DNA from: Bacilli bacterium
Lineage (GTDB): Bacteria; Bacillota_I; Bacilli_A; RFN20; CAG-826
Reading direction: 5' to 3'
Assembly: GCA_017447165.1 (NCBI GenBank)
Contig: JAFSOD010000004.1
Span: 179,267-243,266, forward strand
Length of the DNA stretch: 64,000 nt
Shown: piece after piece, positions 21,306 to 31,831 of the stretch
Numbering within the stretch: the first letter of the stretch is position 1
Layout of the letters: every line of letters starts with the position of its first letter
Notes under the pieces: model-generated
What the model was told of the DNA's origin: nothing
Seen by the model: the letters and a program-made list of their open reading frames with translations, nothing else
Database searches by the model: none
Translations under genes and position numbers: made by a program

Positions 21306-22402
21306 TTTTCTTTGCCTCCATTTGTAGATATGCATATAAGAAGTTATCGATGTTTCCGTTCATTACTCCTTCAACATCAACTTCTTCATAATTTGTTCTA
21401 TTATCTTTCACTAATGTATATGGACAGAAAACGTACGAGCGAATTTGACTACCCCATTCAATGTTTTTCTTTTCACCGACAATTGAGTTAAGTTCATTAT
21501 TTCTTTTTTCGACTTCTAATAAATACAATTTGCTTTTCAACATCGCCATCGCAGTTTCTTTATTAGATAATTGGCTTCTTTCAACTTGGCAAGACACTAC
21601 TATTCCTGTAGGTAAGTGGGTGATTCTCACTGCGGTTTCCACTTTGTTGACATTTTGTCCACCAGCGCCACCACTACGGTAAGTATCAATTTTTAAATCC
21701 GATTCACTAATTTCAATATTAATTGAGTCATTTTGAAATTCAGGAATAACATTCACACTAGCAAAGCTAGTATGTCTTCTTTTATTCGCATCAAAAGGAG
21801 AGATTCTTACTAATCTATGAACACCTTTTTCTCCTTTTAATAAACCATAAGCGTGTTTACCGGCAATCTTAATAGTGACACTTTTTAATCCTGCTTCTTC
21901 ACCAGGTTCATAAGAGATAAGTTGCATCTTAAATCGATGCGCTTCCGCATATAAAACGTACATGCGATATAACATGTCCGCCCAGTCTTGTGCTTCTGTA
22001 CCACCTGCGCCTGGATGAATTTCAATAATCGCGTTAAGATTATCAAACTCACCACTAAATAAACGGTCTACTTCGAATTCATTAACTTCTTTTTTTAAAT
22101 CTTCAAAGGACTCGGAAATGGATTCAAGCAAAGATTCATCTCCTAAATCTAAAAGTTCCACTAAGTCAGTATAAGTGGAGGAAATAGATTTATAGGAATC
22201 ATAAGTTGATCGACTGGAATTGAGTCGATTAATAATCTCTAAAGCTTCGCTTCTTTTATTCCAGAAATCTGGAGATTCACTTTTTTCAGTTAATTCTTTA
22301 ATTTCAGTTTCTAATTTTGCGAGGTCAAAGAGAAGACCCGAGTTGACGGATTTTCTCGCCAACAGCACCAAGTTCCTGTCTTAAAGCAACAAGGTCTTTC
22401 AT
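21298..22402 (-). CDS. prfB: peptide chain release factor 2, requires programmed +1 frameshift
   Basis: Short frame-0 [28 protein letters not shown] ends at CTT TGA C (22330-22324). The +1 frame continues DLAKLE... through the SPF and GGQ motifs ([17 protein letters not shown]). Confidence 0.93.
22324..22330 (-). promoter_or_regulatory. RF2 autoregulatory +1 frameshift site CUU UGA C
   Basis: Canonical slippery CTT followed by an in-frame TGA then C, read on the minus strand. A G-rich stretch (ctcggg) lies a few nt upstream. Confidence 0.9.
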
Positions 22403-24956: not shown

Positions 24957-25583
24957 TTAATATTCTTCTTTCTTTTTCTTTTTGGTTTTCGCTATTACTA
25001 ATATTTCGATAGTTTTTGCTCCTTTGCTTCTTAATAAATCGATTGAAGTTAAAAGTGTGCTTCCTGTAGTCATAATGTCATCTACTAACAATATCTTTTT
25101 ACCCTTCATTGATATATTTTCATCTATTTCTAAAACATCATTTATCTTATGTCTTCCAAGTGAAGATTGATCAGACTGTTTATGCGCTGTTTTCTTCTTC
25201 AAAATGGGTAATTCTTTAAGCTTTAAACTCTCAAAAATCGCTTTTACGTGATTAAAACCACGCCGCTCATCATCAATGTGATAAGAAGGTATATAGACGA
25301 TATGATAACCATGATATTTTAACTTCAAAAAAGTTAGATATCGATCTAAGAAAACATCCTTTAATTCATAGTCATAACAACCTTTAAATTTATAGATTAA
25401 TTCCTTTATAAAATCTGTATATTCATAGACGGCTGTCCCTTTTATATTTCCTATTTCGAAAGACACAAATTTAGCCTGTAATTTACTAAAACAATCTCCA
25501 CATAAAATGTTCTTCCTTTTCAATAAGTTATATATGGAATTATCCGTTATTCTTTTAAAGCAAATTTTACAGAAATTATCCAT
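24957..25583 (-). CDS. comFC: ComFC/ComF-family protein (phosphoribosyltransferase-like)
   Basis: 208 aa. N-terminal Cys pairs CKIC...CGDC and PRTase motif ILLVDDIMTTGSTL. Overlaps the comFA stop by 8 nt. Confidence 0.85.
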   Translation of the reverse strand: MDNFCKICFKRITDNSIYNLLKRKNILCGDCFSKLQAKFVSFEIGNIKGTAVYEYTDFIKELIYKFKGCYDYELKDVFLDRYLTFLKLKYHGYHIVYIPSYHIDDERRGFNHVKAIFESLKLKELPILKKKTAHKQSDQSSLGRHKINDVLEIDENISMKGKKILLVDDIMTTGSTLLTSIDLLRSKGAKTIEILVIAKTKKKKKEEY

Positions 25584-26775
25584 TATCTAATGCCTCATTA
25601 TTCTTCTTTATTTCTTCTATAGATTCTTTAATATCGGAAGTCACTTTTTCGCATAGATAAATTACTTCTCCTTCTGGCGCATCAGCCTTTCTTCCCACTC
25701 GTCCTGCGATTTGAATTAAAGTGCCTTTTTCATATATTTTATGGTCAGTTTGACTGATAATTACCTGCAAATTCTTTACAGTTACCCCTCTTTCTAGTAC
25801 TGATGTAGTTACTAAATATGAAAATAAGTGATTACGAAATTCTTCGATTATTTCAGATCTATAATTCCTTTTAGAATGAACATAATTTCCACCTTTAACA
25901 AATAAGGAAATTACTCTATAGATTTTCTCACATAAATTAATGGTGGGAGCAAAAACAAATACAGGTTTGTTATTTTTCTTATATTCCTTTATTTTTCTAA
26001 TTAAATATAAGTATTGAAATAGCGTATTTCGTTTAACTATTTTGGGTATTGGAAGAGGATGACGATGAAAACGAACTTCTAATCTTAATATATCTTTGTT
26101 ATCTCCATGGAAATGATCTATTACTTCTTTAGATGGAGTGGCGGACATCATAACATAATGACCACACAAAGATTGATAGAACATGCTATGTAATGTTGGA
26201 TCATCTTTAAACGGAAAAGCGTCTATCTCATCTAGGATAATTAAAGAGAAATAATTCTTGTATCTATATAGTTGATGTGTGGTTAGGACAACTATATCGC
26301 CTTCTTTATCTTTTGTGTGCCCTCCATATAAGCAAACCACTTTGTTATATTTAAATATTTCTCTTAACCTATTATGTAATTCTATTGCAACATCTCTTCT
26401 AGGGAGCGCAAACGCGACCTTATCGCCACAATTAATTGCATATTTAATAATGTTGAGGCAAATTTCAGTCTTTCCTGATCCACATACAGCAAAAACAAGA
26501 CTATCTATTCCTTTCTTATAGTTCTCCACTAACTTATCGGATAATTCTTTCTGTTCTGGAGATAGCTCGTACTCTAAATGAATAGGTGCTTTCTTGGGAT
26601 AAGATGGCTTATGTTCTACTTCTTCACCACGAAAAGAGATACACCTACGACAATAGGGTTTGCCATTAAGATATCCAATTGAATGTATATCGGTGTTACC
26701 ACAAATAGGGCATTTATAAGTTTCTATGTTGCAACATCTCCTTTCTTTTGATTTAATATTTATACAACCTGTCAC
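25576..26775 (-). CDS. comFA: ComFA competence DNA-uptake helicase/translocase (only full-length copy)
   Basis: 399 aa. N-terminal 4-Cys motif CPICG...CRRC, Walker A AVCGSGKTE, DEID box, and the VTTSVLERGVT and QIAGRVGR helicase motifs. The start is uncertain: the track uses GTG 26775 inside a hairpin, and the position homologous to the ATG of fragment F2 is ATA (26727-26725). Confidence 0.85.
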   Translation of the reverse strand: MTGCINIKSKERRCCNIETYKCPICGNTDIHSIGYLNGKPYCRRCISFRGEEVEHKPSYPKKAPIHLEYELSPEQKELSDKLVENYKKGIDSLVFAVCGSGKTEICLNIIKYAINCGDKVAFALPRRDVAIELHNRLREIFKYNKVVCLYGGHTKDKEGDIVVLTTHQLYRYKNYFSLIILDEIDAFPFKDDPTLHSMFYQSLCGHYVMMSATPSKEVIDHFHGDNKDILRLEVRFHRHPLPIPKIVKRNTLFQYLYLIRKIKEYKKNNKPVFVFAPTINLCEKIYRVISLFVKGGNYVHSKRNYRSEIIEEFRNHLFSYLVTTSVLERGVTVKNLQVIISQTDHKIYEKGTLIQIAGRVGRKADAPEGEVIYLCEKVTSDIKESIEEIKKNNEALDNG

Positions 26776-26802
26776 GCAGAGCTAAATAGGCTCAGACAGG
26801 TT
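26766..26802 (-). other. 8-bp-stem hairpin between cassette ORF A1 and the comFA 5' UTR
   Basis: aacctgtc (26766-26773) pairs with gacaggtt (26795-26802). The loop holds a nested gagc/gctc pair. No U-run follows, so it is not a canonical terminator. Confidence 0.5.
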
Positions 26803-26803
26803 T

Positions 26804-27127
26804 TTATTTTAACTTAACAGGTTTTCTTCTTTTTATAATTCTTATTGTCAATCTATCATCAGGGTGTATTTTCATACCAATCAATTCTCTTGATCCAAAA
26901 TGCTTACGTTTACCCTGAACAGGTCTATTGTTCACAAACTAAGCCTTAACTTTATTTTCGGTAGGATGTTTTAGTTTTGTCTGATGTCTATGTTGAGATG
27001 TTCCTGTGATAACAGCAATATAAATGTTCTTTTTATCATTCTTTAAAACAATTAAACCAGGGTGTTTGTTTACTATATAAAATTTTCCTTTTTCTAAATG
27101 TTTGTTATAAATCTTTTTCTTACTCAT
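26804..27127 (-). pseudogene. cassette ORF A1 (small basic protein superfamily), interrupted by an in-frame TAG at 26939-26941
   Basis: The 62-aa ORF is MSKKKIYNKHLEKGKFYIVNKHPGLIVLKNDKKNIYIAVITGTS.... After the TAG, the same frame continues FVNNRPVQGKRKHFGSRELIGMKIHPDDRLTIRIIKRRKPVKLK, which aligns with the C-terminal half of A2. Confidence 0.7.
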
Positions 27128-27142
27128 ATTTCCTCCTTTCTG

Positions 27143-27424
27143 TTATGTATTTCGTGTTTTTGGGGATCCACATACGGCAAAAACTAAACTATCAATTCCT
27201 TTTTTATAATTCTCTACCAGCCTATCTGATAATTCTTTTTGCTCTGGAGACAACTCATATTCAAGATGAATAGGTGCTTTCTTTGGGTAAGATGGTTTAT
27301 GTTCTACTTCTTCGCCTCGAAAAGAGATGCATCTACGACAATAAGGTTTGCCGTTTAGATAGCCAATAGAATGAATATCAGTGTTGCCACAAACTGGACA
27401 AGTAAATGAAAGCTGGTTATCCAT
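27143..27424 (-). CDS. F1: open 93-aa comFA N-terminal fragment (Zn-ribbon region up to a disrupted Walker A, GSPKT)
   Basis: 77 of 79 aligned residues are identical to ComFA, yet 32 of those codons differ synonymously. It ends GSPKTRNT* inside the conserved linker, 15 nt before the ATG of A1. Confidence 0.8.
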   Translation of the reverse strand: MDNQLSFTCPVCGNTDIHSIGYLNGKPYCRRCISFRGEEVEHKPSYPKKAPIHLEYELSPEQKELSDRLVENYKKGIDSLVFAVCGSPKTRNT

Positions 27425-27821
27425 TTTTCTTGCCTTTCTTTTTATGTTTTGATTTAATACTGGTAGATGGTGTGCGCCCTTTCTGGGTTAAAGCTTCATT
27501 CGTTAGCTTTCCACCATTTTTTCTTTGCTCTTTAATTAGTGAAACATATACATCTATTTTTATTTCATCGGAAACTACTAAACGATACTTTTTAAGTTCT
27601 TGTCCTCTATGTCGGAGTTTATCTTTTCTTATATACTTTCTGAAATAAGATTTCTTGTCTGAATTGGGATTTGGATTTACATCAAATTCTTCATAATTTC
27701 CAGTTACAGTTGGACTATCAGTTATTTCGATATTTTCCCATGTTCCATCTTCTAGAACACTGATTTCTATTGATGGGTGGTATTTAGTTCTTTTGTTTTT
27801 AAATATTTTATATTTATTCAT
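27417..27821 (-). CDS. cassette ORF B1, 134-aa basic protein of unknown function
   Basis: MNKYKIFKNKRTKYHPSIEISV...ITDSP...VNPNPNSDKKSYFRKYIRKD...RGQ. Homologous to B2. Its Lys-rich tail is encoded by what is comFA 5' UTR in other copies, and its stop overlaps the F1 start (ATGGATAA). Confidence 0.7.
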   Translation of the reverse strand: MNKYKIFKNKRTKYHPSIEISVLEDGTWENIEITDSPTVTGNYEEFDVNPNPNSDKKSYFRKYIRKDKLRHRGQELKKYRLVVSDEIKIDVYVSLIKEQRKNGGKLTNEALTQKGRTPSTSIKSKHKKKGKKNG

Positions 27822-27840
27822 GTATCAATTCCTTTCTATG

Positions 27841-28113
27841 TTATGGATTTGTTGTTTTTGGTGATCCACATACGGCAAAAACAAGACTATCTAAGCCTTT
27901 TTTGTAATTCTCAACTAACTTATCCGATAGTACTTTTTGCTCTGGAAACAGTTCGTACTCTAAATGAATAGGCGCCTTTTTAGGGTATGATGTTTTGTGT
28001 TCCACTTCTTCACCTTTAAAAGAGATACACCTACGGCAATAAAGTTTGCCGTTCAACATACCAATTGAATGAATATCAGTGTTACCACATACAGGACATT
28101 TATAAGGTTCCAT
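27841..28113 (-). CDS. F2: open 90-aa comFA N-terminal fragment (GSPKT end), the only copy with ATG at the conserved start position
   Basis: MEPYKCPVCGNTDIHSIGMLNGKLYCRRC...AVCGSPKTTNP*. Eight amino-acid differences from ComFA over the shared region. Confidence 0.75.
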   Translation of the reverse strand: MEPYKCPVCGNTDIHSIGMLNGKLYCRRCISFKGEEVEHKTSYPKKAPIHLEYELFPEQKVLSDKLVENYKKGLDSLVFAVCGSPKTTNP

Positions 28114-28148
28114 ATTGAATTATCACCTTTCTTTTGATTTAAAATAGC

Positions 28149-28219
28149 CATAGTCGTGGTCATCACTAGTTTGATGCCGGCCCACAGGAAGCTGTGTAGC
28201 TCCATTAACGGGGCTTTTT
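28149..28219 (-). repeat. E1: ~70-nt structured element, copy 1
   Basis: Aligns base for base with 28981-29050. It contains two 5-bp hairpins: catca/tgatg, and cacag/ctgtg at 28183-28196. Confidence 0.7.
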
Positions 28220-28305
28220 ATTTTTACGGTTTTATAATATTTGCCATATATTGGGCATTTATAAGTTTCTATATTGCGTTACCTCCTTAATTTTGTTTTA
28301 ATATT
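28202..28305 (-). pseudogene. deletion remnant: comFA 5' UTR plus 7 codons fused to the last ~14 codons of an A-type cassette ORF
   Basis: Minus strand reads aaggaggtaacgcaat ATA GAA ACT TAT AAA TGC CCA ATA TAT GGC AAA TAT TAT AAA. The comFA start (IETYKCPI) runs into the A2-like tail (PIYG.YYK...), with the junction at about 28246-28256. Confidence 0.65.
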
Positions 28306-28360
28306 TGTAGTTAGTGCTATCGGTTAATCCGACCAAAGCCCAAGTTTAGTAGGTTTTACA

Positions 28361-28657
28361 CTAACTTTTTTTGTTGTTTAAATAGTTTTCAATTTCAATT
28401 AAATCATCTTCTGATAGGTTGAATTTTTCCAAAAGTTGACCTCTTGTTTTAATTGGATCCTTTCTTAAATACTTTCTAACATATGCTTTATCATTTCTTT
28501 TTGGATTCGGATTTACTTTAAGCTCAATATATCTGTTCTTCTTAGTGGGGCTTGAAGTTACTTCTAAATTAATCCAAATAGTTCCGTTTGAATCTACTTC
28601 TATGCTTGGATGATTTTTTGTTTTTCTGTTTTTATAGAATTTGAATTTTTTGCTCAT
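28361..28657 (-). CDS. cassette ORF B2, ~98-aa basic protein of unknown function
   Basis: MSKKFKFYKNRKTKNHPSIEVDS...VTSSP...VNPNPKRNDKAYVRKYLRKD...RGQ. I prefer the ATG at 28657 (SD aaaggagg) over the track start at 28687. Confidence 0.7.
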   Translation of the reverse strand: MSKKFKFYKNRKTKNHPSIEVDSNGTIWINLEVTSSPTKKNRYIELKVNPNPKRNDKAYVRKYLRKDPIKTRGQLLEKFNLSEDDLIEIENYLNNKKS

Positions 28658-28696
28658 TTGACACCTCCTTTTTGTTATGGTTTTCAAGTCTTTGGT

Positions 28697-28945
28697 GATC
28701 CTTATATCGCATAAACTAAATTATCTATCCCTTTCTTATAGTTCTCCACTAACTTATCCGATAGTTCTTTCTGCTCAGGGGGACAACTCATACGATAAGT
28801 GAATTGGGGCCTTACGATATGAAGGCTTATGTTCCACTGCTTAACCCTTAAAATAGATACATCTTCGGGAGTAATGTTTGCCGTTTAGGTATCCTATTGA
28901 ATGAATACCAATGTTTCCACAAACTGGGCATTTATATGTTTCGAT
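28697..28945 (-). pseudogene. F3: decayed comFA 5' fragment
   Basis: Reads IETYKCPVCGNIGIHSIGYLNGKHYSRRCIYFKG* with GAA->TAA, loss of one Zn-ligand Cys (C->S), and a later 1-nt insertion (tccccctga). Confidence 0.8.
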
Positions 28946-28980
28946 ATTGCATCATCTCCTTAAATTTGATTTAATAATGT

Positions 28981-29050
28981 CATGGTCGTGGTCATCACAA
29001 GTTTGATGCCGACTCGTAGGTAACTACGCAGCTCCATTAACGGGGCTTTT
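28981..29050 (-). repeat. E2: ~70-nt structured element, copy 2 (overlaps the stop of A2)
   Basis: Same architecture as E1. The hairpin cgtag/ctacg at 29015-29028 carries two compensatory base-pair changes relative to E1. Confidence 0.7.
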
Positions 29051-29441
29051 TTATTTTTTTGCGTTTTTTATAATAAGAACCGTAAATAGGATTACCTTTT
29101 TGTACTTTAATAATTAAATACATATCTTGGATGCTAAACGACATATCTGGATATTCTTTTTCTCCGTAATCATTTCTATCTCCTATAAAAGGTCTTTTCT
29201 TTATTAGCGATATTTCAACGTTACTATCGGTTGCATGTTTTAATTTGTAATATCCTTTTCTTAAACCTAGACGATCAAATTCTTCTTTGGTCATTGATCC
29301 AGTGATAATTGCATAGAAAGCTTTATCTTCATTATCAATTTTAAAAATTTGTCCAGGATGTCCACCTGGGCTACCATCTAAAACACGATAAAACTTGCCG
29401 ATTTCAAGTGTTATCTTGTGTTTTCTTTTCTTTTTACTCAT
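29037..29441 (-). CDS. cassette ORF A2, 134-aa basic protein of unknown function
   Basis: MSKKKRKHKITLEIGKFYRVLDGSPGGHPGQIFKIDNEDKAFYAIITGS...KKRPFIGDRNDYG...IQDMYLIIKV...KKRKKIKKPR. SD aaaggagg before the ATG. Confidence 0.7.
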   Translation of the reverse strand: MSKKKRKHKITLEIGKFYRVLDGSPGGHPGQIFKIDNEDKAFYAIITGSMTKEEFDRLGLRKGYYKLKHATDSNVEISLIKKRPFIGDRNDYGEKEYPDMSFSIQDMYLIIKVQKGNPIYGSYYKKRKKIKKPR

Positions 29442-29480
29442 ATTTTCCTCCTTTCTTGTTATGTTTTTAGTATCTTTAGC

Positions 29481-29603
29481 GATTCACATACCGCAAAAAT
29501 AATCTATCAATTCCCTTCTTATAGTTCTCCACTAACTTATCTGATAGTTCTTTCTGCTCTGGAGACAGTTCATATGAAAGATGAATAGGTGCTTTCTTAG
29601 AAT
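29481..29603 (-). pseudogene. F4: 5'-truncated, frameshifted comFA fragment (codons ~45-88)
   Basis: Reads KKAPIHLSYELSPEQKELSDKLVENYKKGID, then is frameshifted. At about 29603 its 5' end is fused to the truncated U5 ORF. Confidence 0.75.
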
Positions 29604-29727
29604 ATGAATGTTACTCTATGAAAAACGAAAACATTTCCTTCTTCATCAACGATATTTGCTGGGTGGTTGTTTTTTAAATAAATTCTGAAGTGCCTCCTGA
29701 AAGAACTATTTTTTGTTTTTGTTTCAT
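29604..29727 (-). pseudogene. U5: frameshifted and truncated remnant of a fifth cassette ORF
   Basis: ATG at 29727 after the conserved linker (aaatacataacataaaggag). Reads MKQKQKIVLSGGTSEFI*, then in another frame KNNHPANIVDEEGNVFVFHRVT, which matches the family HP-x-I core. Confidence 0.55.
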
Positions 29728-29892
29728 TTTTTCTCCTTTATGTTATGTATTTATTTCTTGTAGATCAGGGCGGCCTTTATTTTTTTATAGGTTTTCTCCT
29801 TTTATAATTGATAAAAAACTCCCTACATTATATATAGAGTGGCTTTCTTCATTTTTTTGTGAAAAAAAGTTTAATAAATCTTTATAGGTATT

Positions 29893-29914
29893 AAAAAAAG
29901 GCCTATAGGCCTTT
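29893..29914 (-). terminator. rho-independent terminator of rpiB (upstream boundary of the cassette array)
   Basis: Minus strand reads aaaggcctataggcc followed by ttttttt. Confidence 0.7.
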
Positions 29915-29935
29915 ATGTATTAAATATTTTTTAGA

Positions 29936-30373
29936 TTATTTTTCTAAGTCGTTAATCATCTCAACACGAGTTAAGTGTCTACCACCTTCAAATTCAGTGT
30001 TAAGGAAGATATCCACTCTTCTAAGAACATCTTCTAAAGCCATAAATTTTTGACCAAAGGAGATAACGTTTGCGTCATTATGTTGTCTCATTAATCTAGC
30101 AACTTCATCGTTATAGGCAATACCGCATCTAACGCCTTTGATTTTATTAGCCGCAATAGAGATACCCTCTCCACTAGTGCAGACAACAACACCAAATTGA
30201 CATTTTTTAGAAGCTACTTTTCTAGCTACTTCAGCGCCATATAAAGGATAATGGCAACTATCTAAAGAATAAGTACCAACATCAATTACTTCATGTCCTA
30301 ATTCTTTTAAATGTTCTGCGATCGCGTTTTTATATTCTAATCCGCCATGATCACTACCAACTGCAATTTTCAT
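29936..30373 (-). CDS. rpiB: ribose-5-phosphate isomerase B
   Basis: 145 aa starting MKIAVGSDHGG, with CTSGEGISIAANK. Typical RpiB/LacAB. Confidence 0.9.
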   Translation of the reverse strand: MKIAVGSDHGGLEYKNAIAEHLKELGHEVIDVGTYSLDSCHYPLYGAEVARKVASKKCQFGVVVCTSGEGISIAANKIKGVRCGIAYNDEVARLMRQHNDANVISFGQKFMALEDVLRRVDIFLNTEFEGGRHLTRVEMINDLEK

Positions 30374-30384
30374 ATTGATACCTC

Positions 30385-30978
30385 CTATAAGACTTTCTCA
30401 ATATTTTTTAAAGATATAGGTCCCTCTCTAACAATTTTAACTTGTTCTCCAGTAAGGTCAACTATTGTTGAAGGAACTCCACCTAAAGCAAATCCTTCAA
30501 GTATATAACCTAGTTCATCATTAAATATCTCTTTTACTTCATACGAAGTAAGCGCAGGTTTACATCCACTTTTATTTGCGGAAGGAACTAATAAAGGAGA
30601 ACCCACAAATTGAATTAAGTCTTGAACTAGTTTAATATCAGGAACTCTAATTCCAATTACACCTGTATCATGAGTGACATAAGTAGGAACGTTACCTCTA
30701 CTTTTAAGTAAAACAGTAATTGCTCCAGGCATAAAAGCTTTAATAACTTTTAACTCTCTTTCAGACACATATGCATACTCTTGGATATCATCAACTGAAC
30801 CTAACATTAAAGTATAAGGTTTATCTTCTGGACGTCCTTTAATTTCGTTTAAAAGTTTGTAGGCAGTAAAGTCGTTATAATAAACTCCTAAGCCCATAAC
30901 TGTTTCAGTAGGAAAAGCGATGACTTTAGATTCATCAAGAGCCTTTTTAGCGAGTTCAAATTCCTTAGTTGAGTGCAT
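30385..30978 (-). CDS. tsaC: L-threonylcarbamoyladenylate synthase (TsaC/YwlC type)
   Basis: 197 aa with FPTETVMGLG and SANKSG motifs of the Sua5/YciO/YrdC family. Confidence 0.85.
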   Translation of the reverse strand: MHSTKEFELAKKALDESKVIAFPTETVMGLGVYYNDFTAYKLLNEIKGRPEDKPYTLMLGSVDDIQEYAYVSERELKVIKAFMPGAITVLLKSRGNVPTYVTHDTGVIGIRVPDIKLVQDLIQFVGSPLLVPSANKSGCKPALTSYEVKEIFNDELGYILEGFALGGVPSTIVDLTGEQVKIVREGPISLKNIEKVL

Positions 30979-31831
30979 CAGTTAATTCCTTGTTATTAAT
31001 AATATATAAGAATCTAGTCTTTCCATACATATCTTTATCAAAACTATATAGCAGACCACTATAATTCTTCTCTAATAAATCAGTTAATTCTTCTTCCATA
31101 TCTTCCCCGATTTCAAAGGCAATTAAAAACTTGTTATCGTTTAATAACTGCCTATCAATAGAGGTTAATATCTCTTTATAGAATTTAATAGCAGGATCTG
31201 CAAATAAAGCAAGATGTGGTTCATACTTTAAAGTCTGTTCTGCCACAGTATCTTTACTTCTAATATATGGAGGGTTTGAGACAATTACAGATATATCAGA
31301 TTCATTAGATATTGGTTTTAACATATCACCTTCTCTAAAATCGATTTCAATATGATGTTCTTTCGCGTTAATTTTAGCAATATCTAGCGCTTTTGACGAA
31401 ATATCAGCGCAAATTACGGTGCTTTCTAGAAAATATTCTTTTAAATAGATTCCTAAAATTCCAGAGCCAGTACCAATATCCACGATCTTAATTTTAGGAT
31501 CTTTTCCAAATAGCTTTACAATCTTTGTCATCGTGGTAACTGCGAGTTGTTCTGTCTCTTGACGAGGGATTAAAACATCAGGGCTAACTATATAATTACT
31601 ATTAACAAAATAAGCATATCCTAAGATATATTGAAGTGGCTCTCCTGAGGTTAATCTATCGAGTTGATAATTAAGCTTATTCTCATCTTTAAGTTGTTCA
31701 TCAAAATGTTTAAGTAAATCAAAAAAATCTACAAATCCACCATTATCAATTAATAGGGATTTAATAGATGTTTGGTTGAGATATTGATTATCTAATTTTT
31801 TAAGTTCAAAAAACTTCTCGCGGTAAGTCAT
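30965..31831 (-). CDS. prmC: release-factor glutamine N5-methyltransferase PrmC/HemK
   Basis: 288 aa. SAM motif VDIGTGSGILG and catalytic SNPPY. Directly downstream of prfA. Confidence 0.9.
   Translation of the reverse strand: MTYREKFFELKKLDNQYLNQTSIKSLLIDNGGFVDFFDLLKHFDEQLKDENKLNYQLDRLTSGEPLQYILGYAYFVNSNYIVSPDVLIPRQETEQLAVTTMTKIVKLFGKDPKIKIVDIGTGSGILGIYLKEYFLESTVICADISSKALDIAKINAKEHHIEIDFREGDMLKPISNESDISVIVSNPPYIRSKDTVAEQTLKYEPHLALFADPAIKFYKEILTSIDRQLLNDNKFLIAFEIGEDMEEELTDLLEKNYSGLLYSFDKDMYGKTRFLYIINNKELTDALN

Follow-up and report, generated by a model that had tools for sequence, protein, structure and literature searches.

Truncated comFA fragments and toxin-like gene cassettes meet at one conserved junction upstream of comFA in rumen Bacilli

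Minimal mobile elements of Neisseria, according to what Saunders and Snyder are said to have described, are alternative genes located between conserved flanks and exchanged by transformation and homologous recombination. In orphan toxin and immunity arrays (Rhs, CdiA, MafB), displaced variable modules pile up beside the main gene and decay outwards, and in integrons promoterless cassettes are held in one direction behind a common promoter. Prophages integrate into the competence gene comFA in Streptococcus and Bacillus (PMC12378983). Here, a stretch of 64,000 nucleotides (nt) from a Bacilli bacterium (NCBI GenBank assembly GCA_017447165.1, contig JAFSOD010000004.1, positions 179,267 to 243,266 of the forward strand; hereafter the window) was analysed computationally with regard to an array of small gene cassettes situated between rpiB and comFA. 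The array consists of four truncated copies of the comFA 5' part (F1-F4) and an outer linker, and at each window junction the Walker A Gly-Ser codons are followed by a linker of ~40 nt with CCA in place of GGN, an in-frame stop, a ribosome-binding site (RBS) and the ATG of a cassette gene. A literature search for comFA together with cassettes, MazF or fragments of genes turned up only prophage insertions and no description of the arrangement.

Among the systems named above, the Neisseria elements appear to come closest to how the locus works, which is as an exchange island without a recombinase. It has conserved flanks (rpiB with the promoter region, and comFA), no recombinase of its own, horizontally shared cargo and alternative content, with close strains differing wholly (the window and its closest relative, locus L009), and competence is presumed. 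Unlike in the Neisseria elements, the right flank is intragenic and partly duplicated, so that exchange leaves tandem arrays of gene fragments with one fixed junction, and the cargo is limited to toxin-like genes. With the Rhs, CdiA and MafB arrays the locus shares displaced modules that gather beside the main gene, a fragment of the conserved gene before each module, decay towards the outside and, apparently, growth by recombination in the conserved part. It is mirrored relative to them, however, with 5' fragments upstream rather than 3' modules downstream, and the variable part is a separate gene, the conserved gene encodes a DNA-uptake ATPase and no immunity genes were recognised. The likeness to integrons seems to be one of outline only: promoterless one-way cassettes, a common promoter, a short conserved boundary sequence and hairpins after many cassettes are shared, whereas an IntI-type integrase and attI are absent, the hairpins are not universal, each boundary carries a gene-derived repeat of ~270 bp and the crossovers appear homologous. 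Mobile DNA repeatedly targets comFA, by way of prophages as well as here, but the prophages are whole, carry integrases and disrupt the gene (PMC12378983), while the units of the array measure 0.7-0.8 kb, have no integrase and leave the gene intact.

The junction strings reported in an initial annotation of the window were all present on the minus strand at the positions given there, and its reading frames were reproduced: F1 ends in ...GSPKTRNT-stop, F2 in ...GSPKTTNP-stop and F4 in ...ESLKILKT-stop, while F3 meets an early TGA. The core GTATGTGGATC is exact in the live gene, F1 and F2, carries one mismatch in F4 and is degenerate in F3 (GATATAAGGATC); with up to one mismatch, it was found 8 times in the window against 0.6 expected. 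The linker motif AAANNCATAACANNAARG was found in four copies in a scan of the window, all of them in the array (0.22 expected); the linker copy of F2 was picked up by an nhmmer profile and not by this motif. Core and linker are strongly over-represented and, within the window, confined to the array. The F1 linker has 2 mismatches to the cross-species consensus, with 0 such matches expected by chance. In the live gene the Walker A sequence (GSGKT, GTATGTGGATCAGGAAAGACT) starts at 26487.

Compared with comFA, the linker shows a change of GG to CC and one extra base, which frames the TAA. The similarity to comFA does not stop at GGATC; a degraded match (AAAGAC.GAAAT) runs on for ~17 nt. The Ser codon is TCC in most fragments and in no live gene (mostly TCA or TCT), so the cassette-specific sequence begins at that third base, one base earlier than previously noted. 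The outermost unit had been described as a linker alone with an unrelated flank. The linker is there, but a GATC remnant is kept, and since the outermost junctions of relatives keep 0-40 nt of comFA fragment, the outer flank is an eroded fragment and no different kind of site. The passage from stop to Shine-Dalgarno sequence to ATG within 15-19 nt would be compatible with translational coupling.

For comparison, a genome collection was scanned with ComFA, which retrieved 32 loci from rumen metagenome-assembled genomes (MAGs) labelled Erysipelotrichaceae, Bacilli or Bacillales. Extra comFA 5' fragments were present in 15 retrieved loci besides the window (tblastn), and those with preserved 3' ends stop at one same residue. 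Using the nhmmer profile, 39 junctions with one layout were found in 25 related genomes, of the form ...GTNTGYGG(A/T)TC and, past the break, C CCA AAG ACA CGA AAT CCA TAA CAGAAAGGAGG..ATG. The codon in place of the Walker A Gly was CCA (20), CCG (3), CTA (4), TCA (2) or CGA (1) and never GGN in properly anchored junctions. In 28 of 32 junctions an in-frame stop comes 5 or 8 codons past the Ser, and the distance from stop to ATG is mostly 15-19 nt. That many like junctions in that many genomes are due neither to chance nor to local drift. The alignment across strains and species thus bears out the fixed break point and linker proposed initially, with a shared core and positions that do not vary. 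It also agrees with the proposal that the fragments come from a cassette-specific version, as CC for GG together with the stop and RBS was found in no live gene; the fragments therefore descend from a shared junction and not from decay of this gene copy. The alternative considered in the annotation, a linker of comFA sequence decayed by drift, applies to the origin of its first ~17 nt, which are comFA-derived, but not to their fate, as they are conserved. A scan of metagenomes with the linker pattern gave 13 loci. Only 3 of these proved genuine, each having a comFA fragment to its left; the others matched by chance. Between rpiB and comFA, every relative carries one or more cassette genes, which often overlap the start codon of comFA, and 0-4 further fragment-linker-cassette units.

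Cassettes were grouped into types. Types A1, A2, B1-B4, C and E encode small basic proteins without a profile-library match, and type D, which occurs in relatives and not in the window, encodes a YhcG/DUF1016 PD-(D/E)XK nuclease (E-values for the L010 cassette: DUF1016_N 6e-38, YhcG_C PDDEXK 5.5e-52). Cassettes are 90-100% identical in nucleotide sequence between species in which the comFA 3' parts are 58-67% identical, and near-identical cassettes beside diverged comFA imply horizontal movement. The A2 cassette, for instance, is 93-100% nt identical among the window (X_F3), L035 and L020, with 67% nt identity in the comFA 3' part between the window and L020. Its shared tract extends from the right part of the linker to ~10 codons into comFA, after which identity is ~80%, and pairs of B1, B2, B4, C and D cassettes show tracts of the same pattern. 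The transferred tracts lack a whole unit of cassette and 5' fragment. The window cassette X_F2 is 97-100% identical to a cassette of L065 that stands beside a very different comFA type, and the identity ends at the comFA ATG.

The break coincides with a boundary in the live gene. Among the 25 array genomes, mean pairwise amino acid (aa) identity of ComFA is 90-96% up to GSGKTEI and ~60% right after it. The window 5' module has 89-99% protein identity to genomes whose remaining ComFA is 46-97% identical, and ordinary, diverged 5' regions were found in the loci fetched via the cassette protein (L001-L008, L065). The comFA 5' module is thus a separate evolutionary unit, and Walker A marks its modular boundary. 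The comparison with L009 shows the reverse relation, with 95% nt identity in the comFA 3' part and only 82% in the 5' module, and divergence falls from ~20% to at most 5% inside the 11-nt GTATGTGGATC block. The window and L009 are wholly different from 29795 to the Walker A block, where L009 holds a single YhcG cassette, and 92-95% identical outside. Fragments differ from the consensus by 9.1 changes versus 4.75 in live modules (p = 2e-4), in addition to stops and frameshifts. F1 and F2 are 77-82% nt and 88-91% aa identical to the live module, with mainly synonymous differences. Linkage between cassette type and the downstream 5' module gave almost no signal beyond the first third (82.2 vs 79.0%); as all modules are ~80-83% identical, consistent with synonymous saturation, this comparison does not separate the models.

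On balance we lean, with modest confidence, towards one ancestral junction that spread by homologous recombination, probably via natural transformation. An ancient rearrangement would have set a cassette leader (stop, RBS, toxin-like gene) right after the Walker A Gly-Ser codons of comFA and would also have duplicated the comFA 5' module, the junction being its inherited scar. Since then, the interval from rpiB through the cassettes to comFA would have been a cassette exchange site without a recombinase of its own. A cassette would be flanked by a comFA 5' module and linker on the left and by the start of another comFA 5' module on the right, so that incoming DNA from a relative could recombine by RecA-type homologous recombination. 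Unequal alignment would add a unit and push the old 5' module upstream as a dead fragment with its old junction, equal alignment would exchange cassettes, and microhomology deletions would wear down old units. The uniform break would follow from a single ancestor, from interspecies homology that ends at Walker A and from a linker that is needed for cassette expression.

When divergent comFA genes are compared, exact runs of at least 14 nt are concentrated in the 5' module. They are most frequent 15-45 nt ahead of the GS codon, in 56-63% of pairs, and occur in at most 6% just past it, which makes Walker A the last usable interspecies crossover point. In the one pair that sets a displaced fragment beside its still-live counterpart, L023 (B1-fragment-linker-B3) and L032 (B1-live gene) are ~98% identical through cassette, hairpin and module, with 13/567 mismatches (2.3%) up to 80 nt ahead of the junction, whereas the final 82 nt have 10/82 (12.2%) and 88% identity (Fisher p = 2e-4, with the breakpoint set post hoc); the pattern suggests a crossover ~80 nt inside the fragment, as a left crossover within the module predicts. 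In four junctions, microhomology deletions have joined the CPVCG codons of the zinc finger with the AVCGS codons of Walker A via shared (C)TGTATGTGG; the GTATGTGG motif in the zinc-finger codons mediated internal deletions, further deletions use TGGAT and other endpoints, and the stub in the window is another case.

Several points weigh against this reading. The crossover evidence comes from a single pair, and the relatives were retrieved partly via 5'-module peptides, which biases the sample towards conserved modules. Transferred tracts end very near the cassette edges, which could also mean precise site-directed exchange. The junction has weak dyad symmetry (GTATGTGG and the reverse complement of CCAAAGAC, 6/8 matches), and this is raised by the GG to CC change. 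In L065, comFA is very different (Ser codon AGT, 5' region about 52-57% identical), and L065 has an array of its own in which a fragment of its own comFA type meets the common linker at the identical codon (GGT AGA followed by CCA AAG), a junction that homologous recombination alone explains awkwardly. B1 cassettes are also present at loci of other kinds, and hence there is a further route by which they move. That these uncultured bacteria are competent is assumed.

A precise exchange could be provided by site-specific recombination of an integron- or IMEX-like kind, where a recombinase acting in trans at the site between GG(A/T)TC and C inserts a circle of linker, cassette and comFA 5' module and displaces the resident module. 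We consider this unlikely, although it would accommodate a junction that is the same to the base in all 39 cases and in the divergent comFA type with the other Ser codon, the L065 fragment of self type up to GGTAG, the switch between the window and L009 inside the 11-nt core, the weak dyad and the cassettes at other loci. It would also suit promoterless cassettes in one orientation, with a common upstream promoter region and imperfect hairpins after many of them. Such hairpins, which an attC-like system would need after every cassette, are not universal, though, being found after B, A2 and some D cassettes and absent where A1, C and some D cassettes overlap the comFA start, and homology extends past the proposed core. 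The downstream comFA 5' module, which a circle would bring along, is not co-transferred (~80% identity versus 93-100% for the cassette), and the L023/L032 crossover lies within a module. No recombinase gene stands near any of the more than 30 loci; within ~6-8 kb in L001-L008 and L061-L064, a search confined to the locus rather than whole genomes found housekeeping genes only and no recombinase Pfam family. Scans of viral contigs with the comFA fragment and the B-family profile gave no relatives. For want of a nearby recombinase, a viral relative and a co-transferred module, and given the intramodule crossover, the initial interpretation of GTATGTGGATC as an attachment core was not retained; a prophage or integrative and conjugative element att site was rejected, as there are no element genes. 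Cutting in place of integration is the basis of a homing model, in which a YhcG or MazF-fold product cuts naive comFA at Walker A, template repair copies the cassette and the GG to CC change immunises displaced copies; DNA containing GGATCAGGAAAGAC would be the predicted target, in contrast to GGATCCCCAAAGAC. The sharp Walker A boundary with a homogenised 5' module next to it resembles a co-conversion tract, Gly is retained in no fragment and one cassette type is a PD-(D/E)XK nuclease. Homing is nevertheless very unlikely, because every array coexists in its genome with a live site that is still intact although it should be cleavable, and five unrelated or remotely related cassette types would need one target. 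In addition, MazF-fold proteins are RNases or gyrase poisons and not DNA endonucleases.

Local tandem duplication of cassette and comFA 5' part followed by drift, with no horizontal input, would give the tandem layout with its periods of 688-835 nt and the greater decay of outer units. We give it hardly any credence: the differences of F1 and F2 from the live module are mainly synonymous, the cassettes come from different families with near-identical ones in distant species, and the close strain L009 has wholly different content. In its simple form it was rejected, as the cross-species cassette identities contradict it. A functional explanation, compatible with any of these mechanisms, is a toxin-antitoxin logic in which the N-terminal zinc-ribbon module of ComFA, be it a fragment or a part of the live protein, neutralises MazF-fold products and thereby fixes the layout, since a break point would survive only with a complete N-module whose translation is coupled to the toxin gene. 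We hold this to be decidedly improbable. The fold of the products (MazF, CcdB or CptN) speaks for it, as do the ComFA N-module after every cassette, its start codon often overlapped and no separate antitoxin open reading frame (ORF) present, the pairing of a distant relative in the family with an HTH/XRE gene that overlaps it, as in classical type II systems, and the unusual conservation of the N-module (89-99% aa). Fragments decay faster than live modules, however, with many broken beside intact cassettes, B1 cassettes occur at loci without an adjacent comFA, and a nearly invariant N-module could not neutralise type-specifically. An interaction between ComFA-N and the cassette products is a candidate worth testing in view of the constant pairing and the extreme N-module conservation. 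More speculatively, and in our opinion improbably, the cassettes could be transformation-driven, recombinase-free and self-propagating, each toxin-like gene moving along with, or landing next to, a copy of the ultra-conserved comFA 5' module, with that module as both universal homology arm and antidote or partner of the MazF-fold products, and with selected junction features. In that case, a cassette would insert into comFA of any competent relative while the gene stays active, loss or disruption of comFA would be penalised, and Gly-to-Pro, stop and RBS would be a selected design and no neutral scar.

Spread of one junction by homologous recombination, the reading preferred here, would mean that mobile genes can build up integron-like arrays within an essential competence gene, needing only a partly duplicated gene segment as portable homology arm and host recombination. 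It would also connect the way toxin-like genes spread among uncultured Bacilli of the rumen with the uptake of DNA, and it flags the N-terminal ComFA module as exceptionally constrained.

The cassette products carry a MazF, CcdB or CptN fold (families A, B, probably C and E), and from this point of view several undescribed MazF-fold families have been missed by every profile library. We infer a toxin function for them. The motifs GGHP..L and a hydrophobic strand followed by T-S are placed like GG.RP..V and ..IT.. of MazF, the sequences having been read by eye with no residue-level alignment, and so resemble those of the MazF/PemK/Kid/CcdB and ToxN/CptN toxins. Unlike these toxins, the cassettes have no Pfam PemK or PDB sequence match, adjacent antitoxin gene or upstream RNA repeats, and the Arg of the RP motif is replaced by His. 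The window cassette proteins had no match in Pfam, NCBIfam, PHROGs or PADLOC, library scans of cassette proteins were likewise negative for the PemK/MazF and CcdB profiles, and PDB sequence searches with both family profiles gave nothing relevant. Homologues numbered 111 for family A and 458 for family B, all metagenomic and without Pfam domains, and an exhaustive HMMER search with the B profile gave 134 clusters at 50% identity, with no Pfam link among 10 scanned. Between cassette families, hhalign found weak or insignificant relations only, so that the common ancestry of A, B, C and E is drawn from fold and motif only. At the arrays no separate antitoxin ORF was seen, the neighbours being comFA fragments or live comFA only. 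TRF found no 30-50-nt repeat array of the type III antitoxin kind in 26600-30000, and an Rfam search of 25000-31000 at E<=1 was empty. For lack of RNA repeats, a toxin-antitoxin system of type III (ToxIN/CptIN) was rejected.

A distant B-family member of 173 aa was observed in L057 (783-1485; also in L058 and L059), followed by an overlapping 73-aa HTH_3/XRE gene. Such a pair, in gene order, has the classical toxin-antitoxin layout and supports a toxin ancestry of the family. B1-type genes were also seen at two loci unrelated to comFA (L041 5880-6520 and L060 4980-5400), with the hairpin retained in both. One adjoins a tRNA gene with the same promoter hairpin and the other lies between PALP and Flg_new genes; the L060 locus keeps a remnant of the comFA leader.

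The features of the array are listed in Table 1. Its gene order is unchanged in 20 contigs from other samples, and on account of this recurrence an assembly artefact was rejected. Live comFA was assigned on its DEAD/ResIII and Helicase_C core (Pfam E-values 5e-18, 7e-15 and 1e-12), a CxxC...CxxC N-terminus and the downstream genes comFC (PRTase), secA and prfB, the gene order usual in Firmicutes. Homology to L009 picks up again at the left border of the variable region. The stub at 28240-28290 is a comFA start fused to what was the 3' end of a B4-type cassette, now lost. As X_F1 has a single in-frame TAG, it is a recent pseudogene.

Table 1. Coordinates of the features of the rpiB-comFA interval in the window.
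Feature	Position	Strand	Remarks
rpiB	30373-29936	minus	left neighbour of the array
Left border of variable region	29795..29935	minus	rpiB terminator 29897-29914 and conserved promoter/hairpin segment
Outermost unit	29608..29770	minus	linker with GATC remnant 29728-29770; truncated type-C cassette gene, ATG 29725-29727
Linker J and F4	29442..29607	minus	5'-truncated comFA fragment; linker 29442-29480; core variant GTATGTGAATC at 29481-29491
Cassette gene X_F4	29037..29441	minus	type B4, 134 aa
Hairpin element E1, copy 1	28960..29067 (28960..29036 up to X_F4)		GC-rich; then F3 on minus strand
Linker J and F3	28658..28951	minus	linker about 28658-28698; degenerate comFA 5' pseudogene with stops and frameshifts
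Cassette gene X_F3	28361..28657	minus	type A2, 98 aa
Three-part spacer	28130..28352	minus	E1 copy 2 (28130-28235), stub (28240-28290), A2-specific hairpin (28300-28352)
Linker J and F2	27822..28113	minus	linker 27822-27862; intact 90-aa comFA 5' ORF 27841-28113, ATG start; core 27863-27873
Cassette gene X_F2	27417..27821	minus	type A1, 134 aa; 8-nt overlap with F1 start codon
F1	27143..27424	minus	intact 93-aa truncated comFA 5' ORF, end GSPKTRNT-stop; core GTATGTGGATC at 27165-27175
Linker J of F1	27128..27164	minus	C CCA AAA ACA CGA AAT ACA TAA CAGAAAGGAGGAAAT, then ATG 27125-27127
Cassette gene X_F1	26804..27127	minus	B-type; one in-frame TAG at 26936-26938
Live comFA	25576..26775	minus	399-aa ORF; Pfam DEAD, ResIII, Helicase_C; hairpin before, comFC, secA, prfB after
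GTATGTGGATC in live comFA	26477..26487	minus	right-hand limit of exchangeable comFA 5' module

Element E1, read on the plus strand in both copies, is conserved and has three hairpins, with a terminator-like hairpin and T-run antisense to comFA. The terminator-like hairpins lie at 28198-28215 and 29030-29047, the latter overlapping the last codons of X_F4. The middle stem shows compensatory changes, antisense folding is better (-24.3 vs -17.8 kcal/mol) and no Rfam match was found. We regard E1 as a candidate for a small antisense RNA that faces the leader of comFA and the 3' end of the cassette. Hairpins specific to the cassette type (26760-26805 and 28300-28352) have an A-run before and a T-run after them on the plus strand; the one at 28300-28352 recurs in L020, L025 and L035, and L003 has a copy immediately downstream of rpiB. 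An insert of ~290 nt with an A2-type hairpin lies between duplicated 3' ends of rpiB in L003 (7230-7600), so small insertion with duplication of the flanking gene also occurs on the rpiB side.

Upstream of the cassettes, a conserved inverted repeat around a TATATA-like box followed by a T-run (e.g. CCCTCTTATATATATGAGAGGGTTTTTT) was seen in the window at 29800-29870 and in L014 (5470-5500), L025 (4005-4040) and L041 (5930-5965). A TTCGAAAA-like box precedes the inverted repeat upstream of the first cassette in many relatives. The inverted repeat with this box may be an operon promoter or operator, or a competence-sigma box.

At the start of live comFA, ATA stands at 26725-26727 where F2 and several relatives have ATG, and a strong AAAGGAG RBS lies before the ATA. 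Several relatives have an in-frame TGA just upstream of the comFA start position, and no canonical start codon is thus left there. An out-of-frame ATG mini-ORF extends over the comFA start (MLQHRNL-stop in the window, MMQYRNL-stop in several relatives). Initiation of comFA could be non-canonical or regulated.

Many B1 proteins in the databases (P0113-P0158) run past the KKK-TGA stop as ...KKKWFT..., and the form of these entries points to gene calling under genetic code 4 for these MAGs. The prfB gene of the window carries a classical CTT TGA C programmed +1 frameshift site at ~22320-22335 on the minus strand, in itself ordinary, so TGA is read as a stop here.

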